From Macrostomum lignano (taxonomy: Eukaryota), in NCBI GenBank assembly GCA_002269645.1, contig NIVC01004827.1:1-34078 (forward strand): a DNA stretch of 34,078 nucleotides. Direction: 5' to 3'. Both the position numbers and the translations under genes were made by a program. Shown here one piece after another: positions 4,817 through 30,496 of the stretch (within the stretch, counting starts at the first letter, position 1; every line of letters begins with the position of its first letter). The notes beneath the pieces are model-generated. The model was not told the origin of the DNA. It saw only the letters and a program-made list of their open reading frames with translations, and did no database searches.

Positions 4817-7800
4817 ATGCGGGCCCTCTGGCTAGCGGTGACAGTGTTATTTGTTCAGTTTAGTAAGCCTCTTCGCAGTCGCTGAGTTCTGTTATAAATT
4901 TTACTAAAACGAAGCCGAAAAAATGACCTGTGAATCCGGTTTTATTGCAGAGTCGATCGCACTGTCAGACGAGAAGACGCTGATCAAGAAGATTCTGTTG
5001 GACTACAAAACAGCCGGCGTCGATGGCAGGCCGGTGCAGAACACCACGGATGTGGTCACCGTGCAGTTCGGCCTGGGCCTGATCCAGATCCTTGACCTGG
5101 ACGAGAAGAACCAGGTCCTCACCATCAAAGTCTGGTCAAGATTTGTGAGTTGTGTATCTTTTATCTGCATGCAATGTACGATGTCTTCGTGTATACAGAC
5201 AGACAACCGCTATGGGAAAGAAAATGCCAGGCTCCAGTGAAAAAAAATCGATTTTGGTTAGTTACTCTTTCTTACGAGTAGAAGCTAGCACGAAACTGTT
5301 TGAAAAGTACGCTTTTCCGTTTGCGCAAACAGCAATTGAGTAATGTCTAAAATTGTAACAAATTCCAGTCATGGACAGATCAGCTTTTGCAGTGGAACGC
5401 GACACAGTACAATGGCGTGTCCGAAGTTCGAATCCCGACTAGAGACGTCTGGACGCCGGACATCGTGCTTTACAATTAGTGAGTGCAGACTTTTACCACC
5501 AATGACAAGGAGAGCGTGTCTTCGCGTTAAGTGGAGCTTCTCTGACCGCGACAGCCTAAGCCAACCCTGGGACAGCCCTAACCAACCCTGCGACAGCCCT
5601 AAGCCAACCCTGCGACAGCCCTAAGCCACCCTGGGATAGCCTTAACCAACCCTGCGACAGCCCTAAGCCAACCCTGGGACAGCCCTAAGCCAACCCTGCG
5701 ACAGCCCTAACCAACCCTGCGACAGCCCTAAGCCAACCCTGGGACATACCCGGTACTGTAAAACGTTATTCAATGGACTCAACGACCTCTCTCTCCAAAT
5801 CCGCTCTCCAGTGCCGACGAGCGTCTCAAAGAGCAGCGCGAGGTGATGATTGTGACGAACCACACAGGCCGGGTGATCTGGATCCCCCAGCAATCTACAA
5901 GTCCACCTGCCAGGTAGACATCACCAACTTTCCATTCGATCAGCAGAGTTGTCACCTAAAATTCGGCAGTTGGACCTACGACGGATTTAAGCTGGACATC
6001 CAGTTCTATCAGAACAAGTCCAACATCAGCACGGATGACTACATCCAGTCCAACGAGTGGCACATTGTGGCCCTGCCCGCCACCAGGAATGTCAAGTTCT
6101 ACCCCTGCTGCAACGAGCCCTACCCGGACCTCACCTTCTTTCTGTTGTAAGTTGCATTGATTAGTGCTGAAATTCACAACCAATACACTACAGGCTCTGT
6201 AGTGCACGCTAATCTACTACATCTTCAGCTGACAATCCTGCGACAGATATTACACATTGTATTGCTGATGAACCTCAACTATATATGCGTGTATTCAGAC
6301 CCATTGCACCCCATTTAGCTCGTATTGCGTAATTAAATTTCACAAGAGAGTAATGCGCCGCAGGTCCACTACCGTTGAACCACCCACGTAAATAAAGTTG
6401 GCTCAATTAAGCTTTCACACTCCACTTAAGCCTGGAAACTCACTTTTCAATAGCTAGGCACCGAATCTCACCGGCCCCAGTTAATTTAGACACCAACCCC
6501 GTTAGGCCACCGACCCTCCCCGGTTTTATTGCTCTACAACCGGCCCCAGTTAATTTAAACATCAACCCCATTAGGCCACCGACCCTCCCCGGTTTTATTG
6601 CTCTACAACCGGCCCCAGTTAATTTAAACATCAACCCCATTAGGCCACCGACCCTCCCCCTAGTTTTATTGGGCTACAACCGGCCCCAGTTAATTTAGAC
6701 ACCAACCCCATTAGGCCACCGACCCTCCCCGGTTTTATTGCTCTACAACCGGCCTCAGTTAATTTAGACACCAACCCCATCAGGCCACCGACCCTCCCCG
6801 GTTTTATTGCTCTACAACCGGCCCCAGTTAATTTAAACATCAACCCCATTAAGCCACCGACCCTCCCCGGTTTTACTAGGACACAAACTAAGCCAAATCT
6901 TCAACTTGCCCTCTCAGTCTGAAGCGAAATCCAGAGTTTTTCGCCTACCTGCTGGTGCTGCCATGCGTGCTTCTGTCCTCGCTGACCCTGGTCATCTTCT
7001 GGCTGCCGCCTGAGAGTCCTGCCAAGATGCTGCTGGGTGAGTGAAGCTCAAATGCAAGACAGTTTTCAGTCAATCCAGAACACGCTCTTGCAAGCTTTGC
7101 TTAGTTCCGAATAAAACACAAATTCTAACAAAGCGACTCATCACCTGTCCGCAGGCATGAACATTTTCGTCGCCTTCTTCCTGCTGTTGCTGCTTTTGGC
7201 TGAATCCACGCCGTCCGCCTCAACCAGCGTCCCCTACATTGGTGAGTCGGACAGTCAGTAACCGGAGCTAAAACGGTTGCTTTTGGATAGAAACCAAAGC
7301 CATAGACGCCCGACACTTGCGATAGAGTGTCAGAGGTTCGATTCCGCGTACGTTTGTGCTCCTCATGCGAAAACTGAAATTTTCACCCGCAGGATTCTAC
7401 TACTGTCTGAACATGCTGCTCATCACTCTGTCCACTTTTCTGAGCGTTATCGTCATTAATTTGTACTTCCGAGGCGACAAACGAAACAGACTGCCCGGCT
7501 GGCTTAAGAAGGTTTGTATAGACCGAGTCTAATAAGCGGGTGCCTCCTGTCCTGACGTGGGTGCCTCCTGTCCTGACGTGGGTGCCTCCTGTCCTGACGT
7601 GGGTGCCTCTGTCCTGACGTGGGTGCTTCTGTCCTGACGTGGGTGCCTCCTGTCCTGACGTGGGTGCCTCTGTCCTGACGTGGGTGCTTCTGTCCTGAAG
7701 TGGGCGCCTTCTGTGCTGAAGTGGGTGCCTTCTGTGCTGAAGTGGGTGCCTCCTGTCCTGAAGTGGGTGCCTCCTGTCCTGAAGTGGGTGCCTCCTGTCC

Positions 7801-9211
7801 TGAAGTGGGTGCCTCTTGTACTGAAGTGGGTGCCTTCTGTGCTGAAGTGGGTGCTTCTGTCCTGAAGTGGGTGCCTTCTGTGCTGAAGTGGGTGCCTTCT
7901 GTGCTGAAGTGGGTGCCTCCTGTCCTGAAAAGGGTGCCTTCAGTCCTGAAGTGAGTGCCTCCTGTCCTGAAAAGGGTGCCTCCTGTCCTGAAGTGGGTGC
8001 CTTCTGTACTGAAGTGCGTGCTTCTCTCCTGAAGTGGGTGCCTCCTGTCCTGAAGTGGGTGCCTCTTGTACTGAAGTGGGTGCCTTCTGTGCTGAAGTGG
8101 GTGCCTTCTGTGCTGAAGTGGGTGCCTTCTGTGCTGAAGTGGGTGCCTCCTGTCCTGAAAAGGGTGCCTTCAGTCCTGAAGTGAGTGCCTCCTGTCCTGA
8201 AAAGGGTGCCTTCTGTACTAAAGTGCGTGCTTCTCTCCTGAAGTGGGTGCTTCTGTACTGAAGTCTGTGCCTCCTGTTCTGAAGTAGGCGCTTCTGTCCT
8301 GAAGTGGGCGCGCCTCTATCCTGAAATGCCACAGGTCAACGTGGCATTGGTTATAACTCTGGTCAAAGTTTTTCGCACAAAAACCTGTCAATCCGCCGCC
8401 TCCGCAGTGCATCGAATTCCTGGCCAAGATGCTCTGCATGCGGCAGGTGATCACCAAGAGCGAGACGGAGAAGCTGCGCCTCATCCGTTCTGAGATCAAG
8501 CACAACCGGCACCACAACAAAAAGAAGAAGCAGGGCCGGCGAGCTCAAGTTGTGGAACTGGCCGGCGATACCGGCGGCGGGCCGACCTCCTTAACGTCGC
8601 AGAGGTTCCAGAACTACGTCGACGAGGCGTCGGTGCGCGACTCCATCGCAGCAGCCGCCGCGGCCGCCGCTTCAGGCGGAGGATCCGGTGGTTTCGACTT
8701 CCAGCAGCAGCAGCATCAGCAGCAAATGTTGCTATCCTTGGGAGGCAACAGCGCCGCAAACCACCCAGGTTACCCGGATGAGTCTCTGCTGTTCCATCCG
8801 CAGTTCCAACAGCAGCAACAACAGCAGCAGCAGCAAAAGCAGCAGCAGCAGAACCTACTCAAACAGGCTGAAGACTCCACCATCCACCTGACGCAGTCGA
8901 TGGAAAGCGACCTCCGCGAGATTCGCCGATCGATCCGCAACCTGATGATGCGCCTGGCTCAGAAGGACGCCACGCAGAAGGTGGCTCGCGAATGGCGCAT
9001 GGTGGCTCTAGTGCTGGACAGGATCTTCTTCTGGTGCTACCTGGTCATCATCATCACGGCCGGCTTCACCCTGCTCATGCCGACCAGCCCGGCCGCGAGC
9101 CGGATCGAGGAGACCATCGAGGAGTACAAGGCCGATTACACGACGGTCCGGCCAGCCCCGATGACCACGGCGCCACCGGAGCCGGCCACTGTGGGCTACT
9201 CGATGCTCTGA
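4817..9211 (+). CDS. Nicotinic acetylcholine receptor alpha-type subunit, anion-selective (ACh-gated chloride channel-like) clade, 8 exons
   Basis: Exons assembled by hand with GT-AG sites and matching phases: 4817-4862 (signal peptide MRALWLAVTVLFVQF), 4951-5144, 5369-5478 (VWTPDIVLYN), 5812-6146 (Cys-loop CQVDITNFPFDQQSC, WTYDG, loop C YPCC), 6918-7036 (M1, PPESPAKMLLG), 7155-7241 (M2), 7393-7511 (M3), 8408-9211 (cytoplasmic loop, EWRMVALVLDRIFF M4, TGA). One apparent 1-nt deletion in the C5 run at 5884-5888. Confidence 0.95.
5548..5745. repeat. ~21-bp minisatellite (gacagccctaagccaaccct[g/gg]) in nAChR intron 3, ~9 copies
   Basis: Periodicity visible directly. Confidence 0.9.
6472..6876. 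repeat. 69-bp tandem repeat in nAChR intron 4, ~6 copies
   Basis: Unit ccggccccagttaattt...ggttttattgctctacaa recurs at 69-bp spacing (6472, 6541, ...). Confidence 0.92.
7541..8325. repeat. 21-bp minisatellite (gtgggtgcc(t/tc)ctgt(c/g)ctgaa) in nAChR intron 7, ~37 copies
   Basis: Periodicity visible directly. It explains the KWVPSVL and EVGAFCA repeat ORFs. Confidence 0.95.
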
Positions 9212-10494: not shown

Positions 10495-13400
10495 TCAGTC
10501 ACCCAGCCTCTCCACTGAGAGGTCCTTGAAGTAGGCGACTCCAAAGTTTTGAGTTCCAACGGCAGCCCAGCCGGACGGCAACTTCTCCCAGCCGGAAGTG
10601 CCATTGTAGGCCAGCTTGTGGTTGACTCTCAGCTGCACGAAGCCCTTCAGCATCTGCAGGGACACCGAGATCCAGCTGTCTCTGGCCAGCCCGTCAAGCA
10701 CGGATGAGTACACCGCCTGCTGCATGCCTGCGGGTTGTTGCATCGGGACAAAAGTACTTAACCCAAAAAGACTTTTTAATAACCTTTTGTTTTCTCTTCC
10801 ATGTCTCCATGCTCCGAAGCAACCCACCATAGTCCCTGGTCATGAGCAAATCAAGCAGCTCACCATAGTCCCTGGTCATGAGCAAATCAAGCAGCTCACC
10901 ATAGTCCCTGGTCATGAGCAGTACGGTGCAGTATCCGCCACAGCCGGGGCCCTGCAGCGGCAGCAACCAGGCAAAAACGCCGCTAGAATGCACCATCGAT
11001 GCGCCAGCCTGATTGGCCTGCAGCCCCAGGTAGACACCGGTGCTGGCGTTCGCCCAGGTGGGCAGCCACACTGAGCAGTTGATTCTCGAGTCCGTCCAGC
11101 TGTAGTCTCCAATCAGGGCGCCAGGCCTGGGGAATCGGGATAGCAGGTGTCAACTGGCGGCTGCGTCACCACCTGCGCCATGGCTCGCTTGCCGTCGGGT
11201 GCGGAGCGAACCTCCCAGACGCCGGCCTGAGGTGCAAGGTAGCGCGGCTCCTCCTCATCGCGCAGCTCTGCCACGGTCAAGGAGATGAAAGCGGGGATCG
11301 AGGTTGGAAATCAATATTCTGATCAACTTTGACGAAATCTGGTTGCCAATCTGAGGGATACCACTGAAGGTTACGCAGCCTGTGCTCGTGTAGTTCAAGC
11401 GCATGGACCGGTCTTTCATCATTTTCGCACCTAACCGTCAGTGTGGAGCATCTCAAAGCTTTGTCTAGCTATGGTCTTTGCAACCAAACTTGCAGCCAAA
11501 CTTGACTGGATTGACCTACTCTTGGCATGGAACTCATGAGAGCAACGACTAGCGGGCCCGTGTTTCTTGAGGGTCCGACATCGAGGGGCTGGCCGAAATA
11601 CAAGAAAAAACAAATGATAAGCTTGTAAATTATTGCACTCGTCTTTCTCATTTTGTTGAAGTCGTCAAGGCTTGTCCGACGATGAACCAGAGATCCAATT
11701 GATAAAGGATGCATCTGGCTTGACCAAATCCCAAACCATAACCTAAACCCTACCCTAACCCTAACCCAGATCATCGGCAGTCTAATGATGGTATTCTTAT
11801 TGGCCGTTGGCAAGAACTCCGCACCGTTGATGTCCTCTCGATAGACATCCGGGAAGAAGGTCTCGTTGGTTGGCGCCTTCTCGTTAACGATCTGAGACGG
11901 ATCGTCCGTCGGTCCCGCGTCGTCCATCGTGGTCAGGGTCAGAATGGTGTTCTTGGCCAGCGTCAGCTTTAAAGTGCCGTTAACGACCTGGAATGTTGCA
12001 ACAAGTTTACAAAGCAGATGAGTCTACTGTTAATAGGAAGAACTGCACAAACCACAGAGTTTTTTGTCATCTTACCGGAAAGTCCGGCAGCTTCTGAAAC
12101 AGTCGGGCAGTTCGGTTGCCGTAGTCGAACACGGACTGACGCACTCGGAACCTCGTGATTGACGACTGCATGTAACAGGGAAGCGGTGCGAATTCAAACA
12201 TAATTTAGAAATGATTTTATAAAGAATATATGCAATATCACTGCCAGGTGTTGTAAAAATTTAGGGTGTCATCCGTGAAAATTCGCGAGTTTACGGATAA
12301 CATGTCAGGGTGTTTCAGGATGTCAGGGTGTCAGGGTGTCAGGGTGTCAGGCGTGAAACGAAGAAACAGCTGGGACCACATTTCTGAGAGAAGATCGTCT
12401 TTGCTATTTGATTCTCGAGAGCAAATTTGCGGTCAATTGACTGAGAAACCGATTTCCGCTGATTTTATTGAGTCATTGGCCTCCTTTATTTATACCTAAG
12501 GTTATTAGATAAAATCTCTTTGACCGATTTTAATATCCTTAGATTTTCATTGACTGTTGTTTGATTGTTGGTTGATTGATTGATAATCCTATAGTAACGG
12601 ATAGAAACACAGATTCTGATTCTGCAATTTCTGGACGAAGACGTCCCTTTTGGAAGACCTGCCTGCTGTCAGAAAATTGATGACATTGCTGACTTCCAAG
12701 CTCGAGAGGGATTAAAGTAAAGACTTCGACGCAATTGAACCGTTCCTTGAACTACGCATAAAATCACTCTCGTATCCAACAGAGTTCAGAGCAACGGGAG
12801 AACTTACTACTTGTGATCTCAGGCGCCAAATAAAAGCCTAAACGAAACCGCGACATTAAGTGACCCTTAACCGTGTTTTCAGGCAGTGTAAAATGTGTGC
12901 CTTGGGTTTTTGGCCCTCGTAGGCGTCTCGGGTCTTAAGCGAGCGGCAAGCCCCAATTTTACGTGACCGCGCGCATGGAATCATAAGTAGTATATGTTTC
13001 TTTGACACAAAGCCGATTTCCTTATGGCGAAATACATAGTAAGTACAGCCCCAAAAAAATGGCAGAGTCCGAAATTTGCCGTGCACGCAAACTAGCTTTT
13101 ACGCAATGAATTAACCAATTAGCTGAATCACTTTTACGCAAACACCTGTCTATCAACCTAAACTCTTTCCGCAATGAATGCAGCTAATTACAAGCCCAAC
13201 CAAAATTCAATTTGACACAAAGCTTATTTCGCGTATAACTTAACGCATTTAAATTCTTCTTTTCAAGCAGTATTGTATATTTCAACTAGATACAAACACA
13301 ATTTGACGCACAAATTAGCGAGTTTACAAATATTGAGGCAGCACTCTTAAAACAAAATTGCGTAATTTACCATACAAGTATCGAAACGAACCAGTGCGAC

Positions 13401-16400
13401 TTATATTCCGTTTAAAAACGCTTCGAATAAAACACTCTAGGTTTCTTCTGGTAGTCAACTTATGAAAAATAAAAAAATTACCCAAAATCCGCAACTTCCA
13501 CTCTGTGGGTATTGGGTAGCAAAGCGACTATAACACCAATTTTTCGAATTTCCACACTCCTTTCCTAACCATTTTGCTATTCTTGGCAGTGGTACTAGAC
13601 CAAGAGAATCAAAATATTCACCAAGTCGTTTGCTACCGCCACCTGCTCGATGACCATAAACCCAAACGCATTCCCAATGTTTTCCGGGCAGGTTGGAGAC
13701 GTCAGTATTAACGATAAAAAAATAGTCTTTACCATCTAAAGGTAGGCGTTTAAGTCCACCAACAAAGTTTTGAGGAAAAACACCAAGAAATTCAACATTT
13801 AAAAAATGTGCGCACAATTTCGATACAACATTTCGAAAGAAGCGATCTGTTACACCACGCTCTAGGATAGAATCAATTACTTCCATACTGTGCCAGGAAC
13901 AATGTCGCGAAGTTCAGTCAGTTGCAGTTGCTTGTCAAATATACCTCCAAATACGACGTTGTACACGGTACTAGTTGCAGCATTGAAGCGTAACTCTAGT
14001 TTTACATTTCCTTCCTTATACAGTTGCACTCCCCGTCCAACACCAGGTTCACTTCCAAGACTGAATGTAAAATTGAGTAACCATTGGCGTAATCCAGCAT
14101 ATTAAATCCAATATCTCGTCCCTGTAGATAGATTCCAAGCTGTTGTAGCAAAAAATTATACTCTGTCACACAATCATCTCCAAAGTTTGTCTGCAGCGGA
14201 CGCGATGGCACCGAGTCTCCATTCACAAACACACCAACGCTGCTCACATTTGCATGCTCAAAGTTGAACGGATTAGTGTCCATGCTTCCATTGAATGCCT
14301 TATTGCTTACGATTGCCATCAATAAAAGTCGTGGTACTCCACTAGGAAACAAATTTTCATGCGTATGGCTAGACGATCCTCGGGTATAGTAAACGTACCA
14401 AGGCTTAGACTTCGGTGCGGATATAATGCATTGTGACTTTTAAGTCCATGAGCATGTGCACTGATAACACTCGGCGAGGGTTAAACAAACCGCAATTGCT
14501 TGTAAGACATGGCAGCTTGCATCAAGACGGAGTCAATTGTGCGCTCCGACTCGAGTTCGATTTTCTACGTTGGAGAGCAGTCTACAACCACGACTGGTTC
14601 GTCCTGCCAGTCTCGATCTATTGCATGGAAACCATCAATCGAGTGTACAAAATGGTACCCAATTATATTGCAATCCAAGGCTCCAATGGAGCTTTTTCAT
14701 GGAATCACAGAAAGGCCAGAGCTCGATCATCCGTCTTGCAGACACGACTCTCGCGACGCAGTAAGTGTCCAATTTCATCCAGACAGCTGTGATAAGGAAC
14801 TCTTCCACTCTCTCCGGTGAGTAGCATATACATACATGTTTAATTTATACAATTAATTATAGGAAACTATAATCATAATTTATATAATGTTTTGCAGTCA
14901 AGTCGAAAAAGGTCTATCGACCAAGTTGAACGAGATTCAAGATGTTCGAACCTTGGCACGACTAACAAAACCAGCTCATCAGCATGCGAACGACGTCCTC
15001 GAGTTTGTGCCTCAACAATCGTACCTACCAAATGACAGTGCAAGCAACGAGCTTGTATTGTCCAAAAGGCTGCCTCGTCTGGCGCATTAAATTCGCTGTG
15101 CGCTCTCTAACGCTCATAGAATCTTCCGACAACATGTTGCAGCACCTTGGCATGTTCAAGGGAGTGCTTGCACACGTAACTGCGACCAAGCCAGCAATTA
15201 GAAGCAGGAGTCCGTCCCCAACGTCTACCCGTGACCAAGAAGAAGCAGATGAACAAAGCCGGCAGAATTCAAGCCAGGTGACGCCTGCCAAGTCACCTGC
15301 AAAGCGTCGGTCTACCACCACCGTATCGAAGAAGTCGACTCCATCGAATGCAGCGCCAGCATCTATTGAACCGGTGGCTAAAAAGCAAGTTCGCAAACGC
15401 AGCGGTGCAAAACAGCAAAACAATTCTGCCGAAGCTGGTGCAGATGGCACAGACTGGGTGGAGGCTCCACCAGTAAAGATCTTGGTGAGTACACCTGCCG
15501 GACCCTCTGGAACCCGGGTGGCGTCCAAGGAGACAGCATTTTTAAAGCGTGCTGCTGCTGATGCGGACGCTACTACAGCTAGCGTGTATTCATCGGACGA
15601 TTCGTACAGCAGCTCTGATGATGAGTAACAAATTTTTTGACTAATTTTATCCAAGTTTTAACTAACTTATTCCACTATATTTATCAAATTTTTGGCTAGG
15701 AAAACAGTATTATTTTTAGGGAAAAGCTCAAAATATTTTTTGCTACTCTTTGTACGCCAACCAGGTTTTGTTACTTAATATTAGAATTAACAATAGTATA
15801 GTCTTGTTAAACTTTTCTTATTATTTACTTTCCGTTTTAGCGACTTGTCCTATTAATAGTTACTGCGAGTCTGAAGCTGCACCCGTTTGAAAAATTTGAT
15901 TTAAAGCAGGCCAAACAGAAGCTACAGACCAGAAACCGGTTTTGCAAACTATTCCTAAGCCGACCAACAATGCTAAAGACAATTTATTCAAACGCTAAAA
16001 TCCTACTTTATCCAGCAGGAAAACTAACTATACGAGTAAATGGCTGTAAATCAAATTCTCAGATAGTCTCAGTTTTACGATTTATCAACGATACTATTAA
16101 TTGTGTAGATTTTGATTTGATACAAGGCTTTATGTTCGATACGCTCGTAGTCGAGCTAGGTGCACACAATGCCGCGTGCACAATGTCAAATCTGCAGAAA
16201 AAAGTTCAGCAATCAAGCTGAGCTGCATGCTCACTCGCATGGTGATTGTTTTTCGCCGGAACGATTACTGGCCGGATCACTGCAAAACCTGATCGAAAAC
16301 TCACCAGATGGGTGGTCCATCACTTTGCGCGAGTCAGCTCATCGTGGTCGGGTAAATTTTGTCGAATTTACTCCCTCTCTTGAACAACAAGACAGCAGCA

Positions 16401-19400
16401 GCAGCTCTGGCGAGTTACTTCCTGGCGAGTTGATTGCATCTTTAAGAGGACTAATATTTAAAATATTGGAAAAAATTGGCTCACCCAGTTTATTAATAAG
16501 AGTCTGCTTTCACTTGAAAGTGACACTATTTCGACCGAAAGCAGACGACGACGACAGCGATGGCTCGAGCAGAGAAGAGATCATTTCGGTCTATTTTAAT
16601 ACCAACATTGCGAAAATATCATTTGATGAGACGATTGCAAACAGTGACATGCTGTTTTCTCCCGAGGCCTACAATGACTGGTTCGCACGCGCTACTAATC
16701 AGCTGTTAATAAAAATTGACAATTTTTAATCTCGAGGTAGTAATTGGCAATATAGAGCAATCGAGCAGCTAGACTTGATGCTCTGCGTTTATTGCAAAAG
16801 CCATGCAAGCACACTGTCAACAAATACGTCCCACGATGGTGTGGGGGCGGGCGGCAGCGGTGGTGATGGTGGCGGCGGCGGCGGCGGCGGGCGCGGGGAG
16901 TCCGGTCCAGTCCGGTCCTGTCCGATTAAACAGCGGGCGTTTAAAGTTCCAGTCTCAATCGGGCGCAAAGCTGGAGCAGTACTGCTTCTAAAGCCGCACA
17001 GAGCAAATCAGTACGACTCAATATCGCTACTCAATATTGGCGAGTATATTTCATCCTTGTGTGCAAAATGCGAAAAGGAAAGACAGCTATGTGCAATGGA
17101 TGAGAGAATTTAATTTTGGTCGACAAGCTAATGGACCAGCTCGCCATTCAAGTAGATCGTACAAAACATTTTGCCGACGCAATCCGAGAGTTAGTCTACG
17201 AGTATTTGTGTGGGATCACGAGACCAAGACGAGCACATTATTTTACTCGCAAAGAAGCAAATATGATGGCGATTGTTATTTTGCAAGCTGCCTGTTTGTG
17301 CCGCGGTATGACGATTTTGAATTTGGCCATTATTTACCAATTCGCAATTTGAACCGGTTATTGAGCAAGCGAGGAAAACAGCGACGCACTGCACGGAAGA
17401 AGATTATGGTCGAGCTTGTGCAGCTTGGAATCAGTTCGAGTGTCGAAATCTTCGAGATTACACAACAGCCTATTTGTTGCTTGATGTACTGCTGCTATGC
17501 GACGTCTTTGAAAATTTTCGTCAGACTGCGCTGCGTGAATATGGTCTCGATCCGACTCACTTTTTGGGTGCACCAATGTTTAGCATGGTAGCCTGCCTGT
17601 TGCGGGTAGACGAACCAATAAAATTGTTTACCGACGCATCTATGTATGCCGAAGTTGAGTCCTCCATTCGAGGCGGTTTCAGTTTTGGAACGCGACATGT
17701 AACGACGGCCAATAACCCGAGTGTAGCAGAATACAGAAGCGAGTTTGATCGACTTGATCCGGACTTTGAAAGCTTGCGAAAAAATGCACCATATGGAACT
17801 TATCTAGCATACTTGGACGCTGATTCGCTCTACTCAAGCTGCATGATTCAACCTTTACCAGTTGGCGATTTTTTATGGCTATCACGCGATGAAATTGGGA
17901 ACATTCCAACTGATAGTGTGAGTGCAGACTATTTGGAAAATCCAAGTGTTAAAAGTCGACTATTGGATTGGTTAGACAATTTTTGTAACGACGAACAAGG
18001 AGCAATGTTCACTGTGGATCTATATTATCCTCGCTTCTTGCCTGACTCGACAGCAGATCTTCCGCTTGCAATTGGTCACGAATTAGTTGGCGAAGACCGA
18101 CTTAGTGAACAGATGAAACTGGACTGGCTTTGCCTTCAAAGAGAACTTAATCCAGATCGTTTTGAAAACGCAACAAGCTATGGTGATGTGAAAGCTTTCA
18201 GCAGCTCGACGCGAAAATTGATTGGGTCTGTGCTTCACAAAAAAAGTATGTTGTGCATCATCGAGCTCTTCGATTGTATCTAGAATTGGGAATGCGCGTA
18301 ACGCGTGTTTACCGCGTAATTCGATTTATAGAACGAGCAATTTTGCGATCCTATATTGAAAACAATATTGAGCGGCGTAAAGTAGCAAAAACTGAATTCG
18401 AACGCGACTTTTTCAAGTTGCTAAACAATGCTCTTTTCGGAAAGTTTCTGCAACGAGTTCGCGATCGACTCAATTTCCGCATGTGTTCAGAAGCTGAAAA
18501 ATTGGAGAAATATGTTTCCCGAGAAGATTTTCTTGACGTAGTAATTTATAATGAAAGTCTGGCAGAAGTTAGCCTCGCTCCGCGTCGTGTTGCGCTAGAC
18601 AAACCGATTATAATCGGTGCTGCAATCCTAGACATTGCAAAGACTCTTGTGTACGACTTTTATTACAATCATGTTCAGATTCATCATTCACAAGCAAGTG
18701 CTGGGGTACTCGCAGGAGATACTGATAGTCTTATGCTGGCTCTAGTCATGCGTAAACCGGACGAGACTCCTTACGATGCCTTGTTCAAAGATTTGGCAGA
18801 AGAAGGTTTGCTAGACACGAGTAATTGATTCACCATCGCATGCTCTGTACTCGACAAAACACAAGGGTCGACTTTTGGCGTGTTTAAAGACGAGTTTAAA
18901 GGGTGTGTACCACTGGAACTGGTATTTTTGCGACCAAAAATTACTCCTTCGTGTATGCCAATGGAACTATAGATCAAGTCTCGCGCTGCAAAGGTGTCTG
19001 CAAGACTGTAGCACAAAGTCTAAAGCATCAAGACTATTTGAGAGTTTTGCACAAGCGACAACTTGTGTTTTCGCGCATGCAGTCGATTCGCTCTCGAAAA
19101 CAGAAAGTTTTTTTAATGCAACAAAGAAAACTTGCACTAAGCTTTTTCGATACCAAGCGATCTTGGACAAGTTGCATCGATTCGCTGCCATTTGGTCACT
19201 AGCGCTTGACCAATTAACAATATGCTCTGATATCTTTTGTTGTACAAAGTATAAATAGCATGAAATAGAAGACTGTAAGCCATCATTAATTTTCATTGAT
19301 CGTAATTTTACAATAAAAAAATGGTGCGTGTATTCATTTAATTTTTTATTTTAGCACTTTTTGTGTTTAATTATTTGAAAGAGTATAATTTTTATAGTTA

Positions 19401-22400
19401 GATTCGTATGACTAGGTTGTAGTGAACGTAAATGTGATTGCTAACGTTCATGTTTCAAGAAAAAGAAAAAAACTTTTTTAAACTCTCAGTTACAAGAATC
19501 GACAACATGAATGCCGAGCAGCAGCACCAACAGCAACAGCAGCAGTACCAACTTTTAGTTGAACGCCTGTACGAATCGGCAACAATTCCGACCCGAAAAA
19601 CTGTCGGCTCGATTGGTTACGATCTCTGTGCAGGCGTAGATGGTACTATTCCGGCCTACGAGTCCCGCAGTGTACGAACCGGACTTAAAGTCCGGTTACC
19701 GGCTGGTACTTATGGCAGGATTGCGGCACGATCAAGCATGGCTCTGCGCGGTATCTTTGTTGGCGGCGGCGTAATTGACCCCGACTATACAGGGGAAATC
19801 TGTATAGTTTTGTTCAACTACAGCTCGGAGGATTTTGATTACTATGCCGGGCTAAGTATCGCGCAACTCGTTCTTGAGCAGGCTGTGCTTGCTTCAGTCT
19901 ATGTCACTGAAGTCGACAACTCTATTCGGATGATTGAGCCGCCGACCAAGCGGCGCGGTTTTGGCGGCTTTGAATATAGTATTTCTTTTGCTGTAATGAT
20001 TGACCATTTCGGGTCTTGTATTTATAGCAAGCATTGCATGCTGTTTGTGAACTAGTAAACAAATTTAATTGTTGCGTGCTGATTAAGGCATGTTGCGTGC
20101 TAAAGGTGATTAGGTCTAAGTTTCTAGAAACTAGAGAGGTCTAAACAGAAAAACTAGCAGACAATCATTCTGAGAAAGAAGTAGCAGAGATCAGTCTAAA
20201 CAGAAACCTAACTAGCAGACAATCAATCTAGAAACTGAAGTAGCAGAGGATCAGTCTAAACAGAAACCTAACTAGCAGACAATCAATCTAGAAACTGAAG
20301 TAGCAGAGGATCAGTCTAAACAGAAACCTAACTAGCAGACAATCAATCTAGAAACTGAAGTAGCAGAGGATCAGTCTAAACAGAAACCTAACTAGCAGAC
20401 AATCAATCTAGAAACTGAACTAGCAGAGGATCAGTCTAAACAGAAACCTAACTAGCAGACAATCAATCTAGAAACTGAAGTAGCAGAGATCAGTCTAAAC
20501 AGAAACCTAACTAGCAGACAATCAATCTAGACTGAACTAGCAGAGAATCAGTAAACTAAACTAACAGAGGATCGTCTAAACAGAAAACTTAGAAGACAAT
20601 CAATCTAGAGACTGAACTAGCAGAGAATCAGTCTAAACAGAAACCGAACTTAGCAGACAATCAATCTGGAGACTGAATTAGCAGAGAATCAATGTAAACT
20701 AAACTAACAGAGGATCGGTCTAAACAGAAACCGAACTAACAATCAATCTAGAGACTGAACTAGCAGACAATCAATCTAGAGACTGAACTAGCAGAGAATC
20801 AATGTAAACTGAACTAACAGAGGATCGGTCTAAACAGAAACCGAACTAACAATCAATCTAGAGACTGAACTAGCGAACAGTCAATCTAAAAAAACTGAAC
20901 TAGAGTAGGTGATTATCTTACCTTGTTTAACATAGCGCTCGGCCAATTCCTACTGACGTGATCGCTTCATTTGACTTAAGATGCAAGTCGAACAAGTAGT
21001 GTAGTGTAGACTTGGTTTGAGTTATTGAATATTTTCTGTATCAGTGTGTTCGTATATATAGTATAAAGAAGCATGTTGACGTGGTTGTTGACATAGTATC
21101 TGTAAACCATCTGCTCAAGTTGGTGCGAAAATGCTATAGATACTCAAGAATAGATCATTTTGCCATATTTCTTCAAAAGGGTGGTAATATTCGCAAGTTT
21201 TCAATATTTCAATAGCACTTGAAATGTGTGAATAGCTTTGGAGTAAATTTGTCTTGAATGGAATCCTTTGAAGTGTGTTTGTGTCACCATTGCTAGAATC
21301 GGTTACTTGTATTTTGGACAGGTGGATATGCAATTCGTCTGAATAATCACGTTGCGTAAAAGATATTTAGCGTGCACATGGAATTTTAGACTGCGTGCAC
21401 ATGGAATTTCAGACTGCGTGCACATGAAATTTCGGACTCTGCCATTTTTTGGGGCTGTACTTACTAAGTATTTTGCCATAAGGAAATCGGCTTTGTGTCA
21501 AAGAAACATATACTACTATCATACTTTGGGTACTTTGGCACAAGAGTCAAGACCCCTGTACCACATGCGTTCAGATCAAGGTAAACAACATCAATTACCA
21601 GTCCATCCGTGAACTTCAGCACCACCGTCTGCACATCGGCAATCGGATATTGGGGCATCGAGTAGAAACAGTGCGCGTCGTGTGGATCCATTGTCTCGAT
21701 CACGACAGTCACGTGAGCAGCATCTGGCGACACGTAGGTTATATAGCTGCCGTTGCCAGGGAGGAGGCCGCTGCCGTTGCCAACGGGAAGATAGCGCCAG
21801 CCAGGCTCGGAGAAGTGCGTGTGGTGCGCTGCAGGATTTGGGAGTCGGTTGCGGTGCAGTGAGGTTTGGGTGTCGTTTGCTAATCCTAGTATGCATGTAA
21901 GTGGCTTAACGATGGTACTTTGCTTCATGTCTGTCGAGTTCAAGATCCTTCAAGATGCTCACCTGTCACCCAGATTGGCGGTTTCACCTGATAGTTTCCG
22001 GACCAGGGCTCTCTGGCCGACATCAGGCTGTTATCCGAGTAGGGAAAACCACGATAGTAGCTGGTGAGCAGGTTCCAGGCGATAGCACTGTAAACACAAT
22101 TTTTAATAAAATAATTCATGCCAATTCAAAAACAATTTAAAAATAATTCAAATTGGAAATTCACTGGTGGCACGGGTTAAAGAATACTTAAACTGTTGAG
22201 ACTGACGTGCAGAGGGGGGTAATTAAACTGGAGAGACTGGGGTGCAGGGGTAATTAAACTGGAGAGACTGGGGTGCAGGGGTAATTAAACTGGAGAGACT
22301 GGGGTGCAGGGGTAATTAAACTGGAGAGACTGGGGTGCAGGGGTAATTAAACTGGAGAGACTGGGGTGCAGGGGTAATTAAACTGGAGAGACTGGGGTGC

Positions 22401-27444: not shown

Positions 27445-29183
27445 CACGCCTCCCCTGAAGAGAGAATTCGGTCGATACAATATGCCCTGAAAACTACTGA
27501 TTTCCCATGAATCTATGACCCAGCAGAAGTCTAAAAAAGCAATCCTAGAAATCCTATCGCATTGTCTGCACAGTGTACAGGCATGCAATTAGTACAGTGA
27601 CTTTAGTTTATATCGGTGTAGAATGAAACTAATCCATTCTGCCAGAGCCTCAGAAGTTGGCCTTCATGGCTGAGAATGGCCTCAGGCCAATCGCACGGAA
27701 TCGAACCAACTATACATGCATAAATTTTCGCAAGAGGCAGCTGCTCAGCCTCTCAATTGCACTCTTGGGCTTCATCAGTTGTTTATTATTAAAGTGCAGC
27801 CGAGCTCTGGCAGCCCATCTCAATTCTGTCCAGCTCTCGGCCTGCCCAGGACAGTGTGGGACTCACATGTAGGCTGATTTTGGATTTCACACGGTTTATC
27901 TGTGCACTGCGGCTGCCTGGCTTTTTTATTGTATTTTGCACTTGGTGACCGGCAATTTAGCATTTCACTGCTGAGATTTGTCAACTCGACAGCTCAGCTT
28001 CTCTACTCTCTATAAGATCCCAGCTCAGATCATGCAGAATCCGCTCAATAAACGCTTGTTTTCTCATGCTTCAAGAAAGCGCTAAACTATCAAAAAAGTG
28101 CAGCTGGCTGTCAGCTCAGCCTCCGCCCGTCATCTCTGAGCACAGAAGCGAAGGTGCAGTGAGGGGGCAGGCAGGGTGCTCAAGCACAATGCAGAGTCTC
28201 CATTGTGCGAGGCTGGGGCTGCAACTCATTCGGGAGCAGCCGCCACTGCAGCCTCAGACAGCTCAGGTTTGCGCTGCTCATCTCGGCAGCCTCATCGCTA
28301 ATTAAATCTATAACCTTCATCTGGAACGGCCCCACCCAGCTCAGCACTCGCAGTGCGACAGTCTGGCGTGATAAAAGGCGGCAAAGAGAAAACTGCTCGA
28401 GTTCGCAATCACCCCATACTGGCCTCTCGAACCACCCAACCCCCCGGCAACTCCTGCCTGCCTGAGATAATAAACAAGTCTAGCTGGAATGCAGCTCCAT
28501 CCAGCTCACTACTCAAAACAGAGACCGAGCTGTGCAGGGAGGCTGGCAGAGCGGTGCGCCGGCCTGAGAATAGCGAGCGAGCAGAGATAATTACTGCTTG
28601 AGGTTAAGCTGGCCTCTCTAAACACCCGCTCCCTACAGCTCAAGACTGCTTTTTGTCATAAATAAGGCATTGTTGCCATGCTTGAATCTCAGAATTTGAT
28701 GGCTCTCAGGCCATTCAGTGCGGCTCAAGCCTGTCTGTTGCTGCTGGCTGCAGGTGGCAGGAATGCGAAATGCAGTGAGCTGCTGCGGCCGAGAGCTGGA
28801 CAGAGTTGAGATGGGCTGCCGGAGCTCGGCTGCACTTTAATAATAAACAACTGATGAAGCCCGAGACTGCAATTGAGGGGCTGAGCAGCTGCCTCTTGCG
28901 AAAATTTATGCATGTATAGTTGGTTCGATTCCGTGCGATTGGCCTGAGGCCATTCTCAGCCATGAAGGCCAACTTCTGAGGCTCTGGCAGAATGGATTAG
29001 TTTCATTCTACACCGATATAAACTAAAGTCACTGTACTAATTGCATGCCTGTACACTGTGCAGACAATGCGATAGGATTTCTAGATTGCTTTTTTAGACT
29101 TCTGCTGGGTCATAGATTCATGGGAAATCAGTAGTTTTCAGGGCATATTGTATCGACCGAATTCTCTCTTCAGGGGAGGCGTG
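27445..29183. mobile_element. Non-autonomous foldback DNA transposon (1,739 bp) with ~397-bp TIRs
   Basis: 27445-27841 is a near-identical reverse complement of 28788-29183. Termini CACG...CGTG are flanked by CTGG on both sides (27441-27444, 29184-29187). No transposase recognised inside. Confidence 0.88.
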
Positions 29184-30496
29184 CTGGGCAAGCCATTTGA
29201 AAAGCAGCCAGTAATGAAAATAAAAAATTTCCAGTCTAAGAACTTATTTATTTGACATCCTTTGTTAATAAAATACCGCGCATTAGCAATTTAACAATAT
29301 AAATGAAACTTTTTGCTATGCATCTATTTGGAACTAGGAGTTGCGAAACCGGTTTCACCAAAACTATGAACCAGTAAACAGGTACTTTTCGCGGTTTCTA
29401 TTTTCAAAAAATGCCGATTGTCTTACAATGAATAATGATGTTTACTTTCTGAGACTTGAAAATACACTAATTTATAGAGAGATAAATTGTAGTTTTTACA
29501 AATGAATAACAAGAATTTCCAAGCAATTTCCGACTAAGGCATGCTAGGGCAGGAATCAGTCTGTGCAGTAAGTATAGCCTGGACACAAGTTTATTTTGTT
29601 TGTTTGTTTAACGAGAAACCACAAAGAAAGAAAGACAAGAAAAAGACATGAATGGTGAGGCTGTGGGTTTTAGCGACCGGCCCTAGTTCACCCCACCCAT
29701 TCTTCCGTTGTTTGTTTAACTAGAGAGGCCGAGGGCAGGGTGCATGCAGGTTGGGGACGCTGTCTGTTTGGCCCGTTTTCCGCGATCAATTATAACGACA
29801 AGGCCAACCACACGCCAAGGCCAAGCCCTCTAAAATTCTACTCCATAAGTAGACTTTTCCCTTTAATTAATCTTACCTGCATCGAGAAAATACTTGTTGT
29901 TGGCTTTTGCCGAAAGGGCAAGAACTGTGACAGTATCGGACAAGATATAAATGATAAAAATCGTACACTTGTGAACCCCTCCCTTGTAGAGATCTCCAAA
30001 CCTAGCAGACTACTAAAAGTCGTAAGATAAAAATATGAATACAGTTTAAATATAGCAAGGGTCATACTCTTAAGTAATGCCAGTAATATCACGAAAACAG
30101 CGAACGTGTTCATTCCATAGTTCGAAAAAACGGTTTTCAACGGTCTATTTACAAAAATGGTAATTTTAACCTAAATACGACCCAAGTCTCACCCTTTTCT
30201 ATTCAAAACCCTGAAATTCTGTTCTGAGACCGCAAGTCTGGGAGCAGAATTTTGTGATCACTTACTGTCGCGGGCACCTCTTCTTAGCGGGCGGATTCGT
30301 AGAGCTTGTCTCCTCATTGTGGTTTCCTCCGGAGTTTCTTGGATTCTGAAGCCGGCCGAGTACGAGTATAAGAGCACTTTAGCGAATGTAGTGAGAAATA
30401 TATCCGTCGATATTAATGTATTTGGTGTGATCAGTAATCAGAGTCATCCGGGATGCGCCTAGTAACAAACAACTATAACAGAATACGCGTTCAGCG

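Follow-up and report, generated by a model that had tools for sequence, protein, structure and literature searches.

The Maverick lineage represented in the 34,078-nucleotide stretch of Macrostomum lignano DNA analysed here (contig NIVC01004827.1; hereafter, the window) carries a cassette that encodes ORF-X, a protein with a TBP (TATA-binding protein) fold, pPolB and dUTPase. The cassette is real in the lineage, although the copy in the window is decayed. We consider it probable that the family TBP directs host RNA polymerase II to the promoter word TATAAG[CT]: the divergent TBP-fold protein would steer the polymerase to this private box, which precedes the virion and integrase genes, and so switch on these late genes, and the upstream block, which comprises a likely SSB (ORF-X), TBP, pPolB, dUTPase and, often, a nucleoside kinase, would be transcribed by the host, its RNAs receiving the host's spliced leader.

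A dead and rearranged Maverick in the window

The window contains a Maverick of 8.5 kb (12986-21517) flanked by a 6-bp target duplication, with the same hexamer at 12980-12985 on the left and 21518-21523 on the right. The terminal inverted repeats (TIRs), 104 bp long, are located at 12986-13089 (starting with AGTAGT) and 21415-21517 (ending with ACTACT), and the subterminal region includes 28/60-bp tandem repeats (20139-20903). TIRs along with a 6-bp target duplication are shared with Mavericks/Polintons (adintoviruses, PMC8502044), and the AGTAGT ends are as in PMC8097293.

This copy is dead and rearranged. Compared with the sister copies, in which all core genes share one orientation, the segment 14493-19972 is inverted, with a junction at 14493-14496 where the capsid gene is fused to DNA upstream of ORF-X, and about 6 kb, comprising the integrase, the ATPase, the penton and half of the capsid gene, is gone. 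For the TIR, 40 matches were listed out of 68 candidates in the genome. The inversion junction was found in only 4 of 40 listed matches; the 3 places retrieved other than the window have a flank in common with it and thus represent one single insertion. Other contigs of this insertion (L013 and L015 and, in part, L014) share the large deletions and the principal breaks in pPolB, which therefore are not read errors, whereas some small indels vary between these contigs.

The sequence-only reading of the window had described an unusually self-sufficient element, with four tightly packed plus-strand genes pointing away from a minus-strand capsid/protease module. The four frames and the minus-strand remnants are indeed present, but the tight packing is an artefact of decay, and the divergent two-module layout is rejected as a product of the inversion. 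The reported overlap of the TBP stop (16221) with the pPolB start (16169) was likewise seen but results from a deletion, the stop of the sister TBP lying some 230 nt upstream of the ATG of pPolB, so that translational coupling is rejected as well. Four visible frames and intact TIRs and target duplication are what would be expected of a compact element that replicates on its own and in which the TBP and pPolB genes overlap; given the recurrent deletions and pPolB breaks and the absence of integrase, ATPase and penton, we attach virtually no credence to this possibility. Self-sufficiency is wrong for the window copy, in which pPolB is broken and the dUTPase is cut in addition to the deleted genes, and which is devoid of the unbroken polymerase, integrase and virion genes of an autonomous Maverick.

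The minus-strand remnants consist of an adenain-like protease (13327-13886), in two frames that match the sister's frame at 92-93%, and the 3' part (residues 253-459, matched to the sister) of a putative major capsid gene (13880-14498), assigned by its position. In all subfamilies, frames are conserved at the places in the module where the double jelly-roll capsid, penton, packaging ATPase and adenain protease genes would be expected; in the sister, the first three produced no Pfam match and the protease only a weak one, to Peptidase_C5 (E = 0.043). The sister copies also encode an rve integrase (PF00665 and a chromodomain) as well as PLA2-like and pX-like genes (PF08398 and PF05829, above the cut-off). 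The pPolB and rve-chromo integrase of the sister copies, along with their putative packaging ATPase and protease, are shared with adintoviruses, and the PLA2 and pX genes with the virion module of the Alpha type (PMC8502044), although in the flatworm elements PLA2 and pX are on separate frames. No RNA polymerase gene was seen in the lineage.

On the plus strand, the pPolB remnant (16169-19217) matches the 1412-aa frame of the sister in five pieces; it lacks 1,153 nt (residues ~420-800) and has another five indels that are not multiples of three. PF03175 was detected in two window fragments and in the sister frame (E = 4e-20). The dUTPase (19507-19972, plus strand) matches PF00692 in the window (E = 1e-28) and in the sister; the five motifs of trimeric dUTPases are complete in the sister, whereas in the window the last, C-terminal glycine-rich motif is cut at the second inversion breakpoint.

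Conservation of the cassette and the TBP-like protein

Gene mapping in sister copies showed that the order ORF-X, TBP, pPolB, dUTPase is kept in all 6 subfamilies examined in the M. lignano genome. The presence of a nucleotide-sanitising enzyme in the lineage was confirmed, with the dUTPase found in 6 of 6 subfamilies; in addition, a deoxynucleoside kinase (dNK) was detected in 5 of the 6 (by Pfam in 4 and by tblastn in the fifth). The extra ORFs are not one-off captures, being kept in every subfamily, with TBP dN well below dS where measurable: of the 3 lineage-A pairs that could be measured, 2 gave a dN/dS of about 0.15 and one of about 0.5, and 3 pairs were saturated.

The TBP-like frame of the window (15841-16221, plus strand) matches only residues 1-93 of the sister's 185; the first repeat (15841-16117) is retained, about 460 nt encompassing the spacer and the second repeat are missing, and the frame runs on to the stop. 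The sister protein matches PF00352 (E = 2e-7, above the cut-off) and 35 PDB entries, all of them TBP by name or sequence, and its model (pLDDT 93.7) yields TM scores of 0.62-0.77 to solved TBPs. As judged from this model, the sister TBP is a full two-repeat saddle, of which the window copy keeps repeat 1 only, and the claim that the lineage has a transcription-initiation-like factor of its own holds at the level of the fold. The saddle is common to cellular TBP/TRF2 and the TBPs of large DNA viruses, but the identity to these is only 17-22%, and the TBPs of the 6 subfamilies are 39-46% identical to one another. Canonical TATA-binding TBPs contain four intercalating Phe and two central Asn. In the Maverick proteins, the Y-D-x-E-x-F-P stirrup and the two Phe of the second repeat are retained, whereas the first repeat has Tyr in place of one Phe and an invariant Pro at the position of the other (register uncertain), and both central Asn are mostly lost.

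The host genome encodes a TBP and a TRF2-like gene, either of which might have been the source of a recent capture, and the gene could also be a passenger without function. However, the Maverick TBP is only 24% identical to the host TBP over 127 aa, an unrooted 67-row tree separates the Maverick TBPs and selected metagenomic look-alikes from cellular TBPs (99/93, with a long-branch caveat), and the frame is kept in 6 subfamilies despite saturated synonymous divergence, which makes both versions very improbable. The best viral match is the TBP of Heterosigma akashiwo virus (E = 1e-9); gene-context scans for the look-alikes gave nothing in viral contigs (3 of 3) or metagenomes (2 of 2). The TBP is not unique to the lineage of the window because a second, unrelated Maverick lineage (B) in the same genome also carries one.

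ORF-X, a likely SSB

ORF-X comprises two plus-strand exons (14509-14816 and 14898-15628; spliced protein P0160) separated by a GT-AG intron (14817-14897); at sister loci, contigs from 7 of 8 runs lack the corresponding intron. Exon 2, which has a 101-nt deletion in the window copy, encodes a long, basic, disordered linker and an acidic C-terminus. A search of 48,161 chains with a model of low confidence (pLDDT 51; the intron was read through with X) yielded ASFV CP312R as the best match (Z 7.2, in the range that the tool calls common; rmsd 5.6; 174 aligned residues), followed by Enc34 SSB (4.6), DUF2815 (3.9) and T7 gp2.5 (3.9). ASFV CP312R binds ssDNA. Among the 67 viral matches at E<=0.001, the 50 listed come entirely or almost entirely from large DNA viruses, and the matches to p31K/FirrV-1-I1 presumably link ORF-X to an SSB family; no Pfam match and no PDB sequence match were found. 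The best fold matches of this model are to T7 gp2.5-type SSBs, with which ORF-X also shares an acidic C-terminus but from which it differs in its 5-8% identity, basic disordered linker, intron and conserved internal splice donor. ORF-X, for which an SSB function had been raised as a possibility, is likely a T7-type SSB by fold, with putative ssDNA binding.

A putative promoter word in front of virion and integrase genes

In five virion modules from other subfamilies, 41,775 nt in total, the coding strand has 33 TATAAG[CT] sites, which are homologous between subfamilies rather than independent events (four represent a local duplication in L075), and the template strand has none; the shuffle control gave a mean of 3.0 and a maximum of 10 (100 shuffles). 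In the 43,271 nt of six early blocks, there are 0 coding and 2 template occurrences. In most of the five modules, the word occupies equivalent positions ahead of the penton, pX, integrase and capsid genes. This strand and module bias identifies TATAAG[CT] as a predicted variant TATA box restricted to the virion/integrase (late) genes. These modules contain few copies of the canonical TATAWAW (4 coding, 9 template), and the combination of a strictly kept variant with a rare canonical box suggests a dedicated reader, even if the word could be read by host TBP or another factor.

A close precedent is provided by the TBP mimics of beta- and gamma-herpesviruses (EBV BcRF1, KSHV ORF24, HCMV UL87), in which a viral TBP fold is paired with a variant TATA box that is restricted to late genes for structural proteins (PMC4893493). 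These mimics belong to a complex of six members that acts on a TATT box (PMC4893493), whereas the flatworm TBP is a bare 185-aa core with no evident partner genes and the box is TATAAG[CT]; the homology seen is at the level of the fold. An unlikely alternative to promoter recognition is that the TBP-like protein, having lost the normal contacts to TATA but kept the stirrup, acts as a decoy or an inhibitor that sequesters host initiation factors or their regulators, with the host TBP reading TATAAG. Such a role would be compatible with the pattern of conservation, in which alteration is greatest in the DNA-contact residues of the first repeat and the TFIIB-facing stirrup is the best kept, with TATAAG being one base off the canonical TATA box, and with lineage B, which has a TBP but no TATAAG series; it is at odds with the dedicated reader that the rarity of TATAWAW suggests and with the activation by herpesvirus mimics on a variant box.

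Baculovirus late promoters have a TAAG core. TATAAG contains this core, and the elements might be satellites in which the late machinery of a helper virus reads the word, with the TBP serving early genes or nothing specific. Dependence in trans appears common: most copies of the window family are without the polymerase core and yet have multiplied at independent sites. The full 601-nt polymerase probe was found in only 3 genome places vs about 35 close TBP matches, a point against the favoured reading. We nevertheless regard a helper as quite improbable, given that the whole TATA half is conserved beyond TAAG, that the word is positioned upstream of genes like a TATA box, and that contigs of the virion module occur in ordinary runs.

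Spliced leader and start codons

Loose ends of contigs at the pPolB and dUTPase acceptors match the 35-nt leader of PMC8629364, which ends in ATG; thus, element-derived contigs carry the same spliced leader as flatworm host genes. At sister loci, the leader was found on a pPolB contig in 1 of 4 runs and on a dUTPase contig in 1 of 4 (run X12), both runs being presumed RNA; each junction is represented by one contig from one run, and among the runs listed none is on record as RNA. The dUTPase acceptor corresponds to 19476-19489 (plus strand) in the window, and the gene most likely starts behind it, at 19507, rather than at 19450. Two of the 58 genomic matches to the leader were inspected, and no GT donor follows. 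Transcription and RNA processing are still host-dependent, as indicated by the use of the host leader and the lack of a visible RNA polymerase gene.

In flatworms, the leader AUG is a known start codon (PMC9851317). At neither of the two acceptors that carried the leader is this AUG in frame with the gene. At the pPolB start, however, 4 of 6 subfamilies have a CAG acceptor where the two others have the ATG of 'M-P', and from the acceptor position we infer that the leader AUG would start pPolB in these 4, which are outside the subfamilies with RNA contigs.

The lineage-A TBP has neither a start codon of its own nor an N-terminal extension. Ahead of it lie a pyrimidine tract and an AG acceptor that is in phase 0 relative to the TBP frame (15826-15840, plus strand; 9 of 9 loci shown, 6 subfamilies), and the tail of ORF-X contains a donor-like GTRAGY site, also in phase 0 (15485-15490, plus strand; 12 of 12 loci, 6 subfamilies). 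The odds are about even between cis-splicing from the ORF-X tail, which would produce an SSB-TBP fusion, and a start at the terminal AUG of the leader. No use of the donor was seen in the contigs of the runs presumed to be RNA; in all 8 of these runs, the TBP acceptor showed no leader and no splice joint, and some contigs run unspliced across both sites. Word-index searches with TBP at near or longer lengths gave no match, a result that bears only weakly on a fusion. A micro-exon that would supply an ATG between the two genes was rejected, as the spacer contains no ATG in 4 of 8 loci. Initiation at the first Met in frame (residue 44 in the window, 21-44 elsewhere) is unlikely, as it would remove the first strand and, in the window, also the first helix. 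In run X4, the joint 6062-6294 is bounded by GT..TT and was read as a genomic deletion.

Discussion

The TBP, SSB-like protein, dUTPase and dNK are not among the genes described in the available text of PMC8502044, where 'TBP' is only a figure-legend label for MELD viruses, in a non-animal section, and 'dUTPase' appears in a figure legend on viruses with other replicases; neither a late-promoter word nor leader use was found in that text. The terms 'TBP', 'TATA' and 'dUTP' are absent from the available parts of PMC11161782, PMC10748475, PMC8097293 and 10.64898/2026.06.19.733378, the supplements of which may list such genes. Beyond the one figure label, we found no literature description of a Maverick TBP, although supplementary maps or Repbase may list such genes, and Macrostomum is not mentioned among the Maverick/Polinton literature matches listed. 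In the accessible portions of the leader papers, PMC8629364 does not mention 'transposon' and PMC9851317 does not mention 'virus'.

With promoter recognition by the family TBP as the favoured reading, binding of the motif by this protein and the activation of late genes are steps that we infer. The real viral replication cycle postulated in the sequence-only reading gains from the strand-specific motif before virion genes, which fits a late-gene programme. The lineage, known here from genes and contigs rather than from particles or free genomes, may have a true viral cycle. More tentatively, and in our judgement possible rather than probable, these elements may be 15-20 kb integrating viruses in which an early/late cascade is run by one captured factor, regulated splicing from the conserved donor joins the SSB to a re-specified TBP and so tethers TATAAG[CT] recognition to replicating genomes, and pPolB of most subfamilies, having lost a start codon of its own, starts on the leader AUG.

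The window copy is a warning that gene orientation and overlaps from one decayed copy may mislead. If start codons are indeed leader-dependent, gene calling would miss or truncate these genes for this reason, and the dependence would be a molecular constraint on host range; for pPolB, it would lock the virus to leader-using hosts. The TBP and its motif address the question of when Mavericks express capsid genes and whether a true viral cycle exists, and the pairing of a viral TBP with a strand- and module-specific promoter word is directly testable in a laboratory-model flatworm. If true, it would parallel the herpesvirus solution for late genes in a far smaller genome.

Decay and rearrangement of the Maverick in the window

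An inverted-repeat search combined with sequence reading delineates an 8,532-bp element at positions 12986-21517, bounded by a pair of 104-bp terminal inverted repeats (TIRs) with AGTAGT/ACTACT termini and flanked by a 6-bp target duplication; the same end motif is described for Mavericks (PMC8097293). A Pfam search of the window matched pPolB fragments and the dUTPase, and produced no match for the TBP-like gene. The UniRef label of the ORF-X protein and the spliced-leader match identify the host as Macrostomum lignano. When the TIR was used as a genome probe, 40 matches were scored of 68 candidates; the window TBP frame produced 97 matches, and 20 stretches of sister copies (other Maverick copies in the same genome) were retrieved for comparison. 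In the sister copies, all core genes run in one direction, namely, ORF-X (the gene preceding TBP), TBP, pPolB, dUTPase, PLA2-like, ATPase, penton, pX, integrase, capsid and protease.

Compared with these copies, the segment 14493-19972 is inverted in the window, and a stretch of about 6 kb that begins behind the dUTPase and reaches half-way into the capsid gene is gone. The pPolB gene lacks 1,153 nt and carries five further non-triplet indels, ORF-X has a 101-nt deletion, the TBP matches only residues 1-93 of the 185 in the sister frame, and the dUTPase has lost the end of its last motif. The window copy is dead and rearranged, not the unusually self-sufficient Maverick that had been proposed. 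The two features on which that proposal drew, a + strand cassette running away from a - strand capsid/protease module and an overlap between the TBP stop (16221) and the pPolB start (16169), are artefacts of decay. The inversion/deletion junction is whole in 4 of the 40 TIR matches listed, and the window and the 3 other junction-bearing places retrieved have a common flank. The large lesions are also present in other contigs with the same insertion; some small indels differ between contigs and may be read errors.

The sister copies are mostly defective too: full-length matches to a 601-nt mid-pPolB probe exist at 3 places only. The family's most frequent form, of 14.7 kb, is without the polymerase core and was located at five or more distinct sites in a sample of 7; it resembles a defective-interfering or satellite element. 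In this form (L001, L002 and similar loci; G000:C2542:22576-37303), open TBP, ORF-X, dUTPase, integrase and virion frames are kept. Contigs from the sequencing runs represent both the 14.7-kb and the polymerase-bearing forms.

The Maverick is located at or within a host gene of the GH59 (galactocerebrosidase-like) type, which was matched on the - strand at 21464-22755 (PF02057, PF17387) and probably extends to about 10495 and 27152. An intronless Snf7/CHMP4-like gene of the opposite strand (23107-23745, +; PF03357) is apparently nested in the GH59 gene. Exons of a ligand-gated ion channel (nicotinic receptor-like; 4923-9211, +) are separated by minisatellite-rich introns, and a separate MITE- or foldback-like element with near-perfect inverted arms of ~410 bp and a 944-nt core is located at 27444-29184.

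Conservation of the cassette across the family

A family survey covered 20 further stretches retrieved around TBP matches. Six subfamilies with ORF-X, TBP and pPolB in this order, together lineage A, account for most of these stretches, several of which are decayed; their TBPs are 39-46% identical to the sister TBP, and the dUTPase follows pPolB in all six. The cassette is real at the family level: the claim that this lineage carries TBP-like and dUTPase genes beside pPolB holds, and with the cassette present in six subfamilies, the extra genes are not one-off captures. Five of the six also have a deoxynucleoside kinase gene between TBP and pPolB; only the subfamily of the window lacks it. The TBP dN/dS ratio is ~0.15 in two lineage A pairs and 0.5 in a third, with three pairs saturated.

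In one subfamily, TBP and the deoxynucleoside kinase form a single open frame of ~460 aa (L032:4569-5990 and L033:4637-6046, both on the - strand). At two loci (L030:885-1993 and L072), one subfamily's copy abuts an inverted, partial copy of another, which suggests nested insertion.

The element belongs to the Mavericks, and its virion module is of the Alpha type. Across the papers searched, the only mention of TBP is a label in a figure on MELD viruses, in the non-animal section of PMC8502044, and dUTPase is likewise only a label, for viruses with other replicases.

The TBP-like protein

The 185-aa TBP frame of the sister copy scores over the PF00352 cut-off, its alignment matches TBPs only in the PDB (35 sequences), and its structure model (pLDDT 93.7) gives TM values of 0.62-0.77 to solved TBPs. 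The next matches are TBPs of large DNA viruses; the protein atlas places the protein closest to TBP clusters with many viral members, with a recognition value under the range in which the atlas is reliable. The identity between the Maverick and host TBPs is 24% over 127 aa. The stirrup and the two Phe residues are preserved in repeat 2; in repeat 1, where the register is uncertain, Tyr replaces one Phe and an invariant Pro lies near the position of the other. At the central Asn positions, other residues are present in most cases. We take the stirrup, Phe and central Asn residues to have the roles generally attributed to them in TBPs.

Of 330 candidates from a TBP family search of the genome, 150 were scored, and most of the 18 non-host stretches retrieved belong to a second Maverick lineage (lineage B), with ~30% identity in pPolB, another gene order, and a TBP with its own ATG. 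Lineage B (L044-L063, e.g., L048 and L059) is high-copy, and its TBP is convergent with pPolB and adjoins an overlapping frame of ~290 aa. A third divergent TBP-like frame (L055:3447-4085, contig C1769) lies near an ATPase remnant and is basal to lineage B in the tree. An Endonuclease VII-like domain (PF02945; residues 613-654 in L018) is contained inside pPolB in both lineages.

A TBP profile search yielded 148 proteins, among them four close relatives from ENA/Logan assemblies; 34 more were selected for the same R/K-P signature. In a tree of 67 rows (14 from this genome and 53 chosen from the 148 matches), both Maverick lineages, the ENA/Logan relatives and the R/K-P picks split from cellular TBPs with support of 99/93; given the long branches, this separation of Maverick TBPs and their look-alikes is provisional.

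ORF-X, a likely single-stranded DNA-binding protein

Contigs from 7 of the 8 runs guessed to be RNA lack the ORF-X intron; the spliced product, a protein of 375 aa, is already recorded under an automatic name. Its viral matches are dominated by large-DNA-virus proteins, and sequence searches against Pfam and the PDB gave no match. The structure model, in which the intron was read through as X, is of low confidence (pLDDT 51); its best four fold matches among 48,161 chains are ASFV CP312R, Enc34 SSB, DUF2815 and T7 gp2.5. ORF-X is likely an SSB.

RNA processing and start codons

Loose contig ends matching the flatworm spliced leader, which ends in ATG (PMC8629364), were found in two runs guessed to be RNA, one contig each: in run X2 at the acceptor of pPolB and in run X12 at that of dUTPase. 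Both genes have an ATG of their own, and the leader AUG is not in their reading frame. Once trans-spliced, the transcripts would have short upstream frames starting at the leader AUG, of 10 codons before pPolB (L017:7031-7060) and 6 before dUTPase (L001:6715-6732), the stop of the latter overlapping the dUTPase ATG; such frames could damp translation. At the pPolB start, four subfamilies have a CAG acceptor at the place of the 'M-P' ATG of the other two, so that translation from the leader AUG would again give this N-terminus; use of the leader AUG as a start codon is known for flatworm genes (PMC9851317).

The TBP frame opens at a phase-0 acceptor, without Met, in all 9 loci shown. In all 12 of 12 loci, the ORF-X tail, elsewhere variable, has a phase-0 GTRAGY donor at an invariant 'L|VS'; these loci share descent, so that this count is not a simple probability; elsewhere, GTRAGY occurs at 15 of 75 Val-Ser pairs. 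Cis-splicing from the ORF-X donor would produce an SSB-TBP fusion, and the leader AUG at the TBP acceptor would yield a minimal TBP, like the free-standing relatives. In the 8 runs, neither junction was found at the TBP acceptor, and some contigs cross the region unspliced.

In the genome, the leader sequence is repeated at ~11.3-kb spacing in contigs C1214, C3830, C4525 and C4853, probably a leader RNA gene array. Two isolated leader matches that were inspected run directly into other sequence; they may have arisen by retrocopying of mRNAs that bore the leader.

A candidate late promoter

Two sister loci of the overlapping type contain 4 and 5 copies of the word TATAAG[CT]A, always on the coding strand. 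Because the pattern was chosen on these loci, TATAAG[CT] was tested in five loci of other subfamilies, with the virion module taken to extend from the end of pPolB to the protease. These five modules contain 33 sites on the coding strand and 0 on the template strand (shuffle mean 3.0, maximum 10), the sites being homologous between loci and therefore not independent; six early blocks contain 0 and 2, respectively. The word is found repeatedly in front of the penton, pX, integrase and capsid genes, and in many cases also in front of PLA2 and dUTPase. The series is absent from lineage B, where repeated TATAAA sites are present on both strands.

This arrangement of a Maverick TBP and TATAAG[CT] parallels that of the TBP mimics of herpesviruses, which are paired with a TATT box (PMC4893493). 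The most likely mechanism, which we consider fairly probable, is that the viral TBP would bind TATAAG[CT] as a private late promoter, in a programme that would rely on the polymerase II and the leader splicing of the host.
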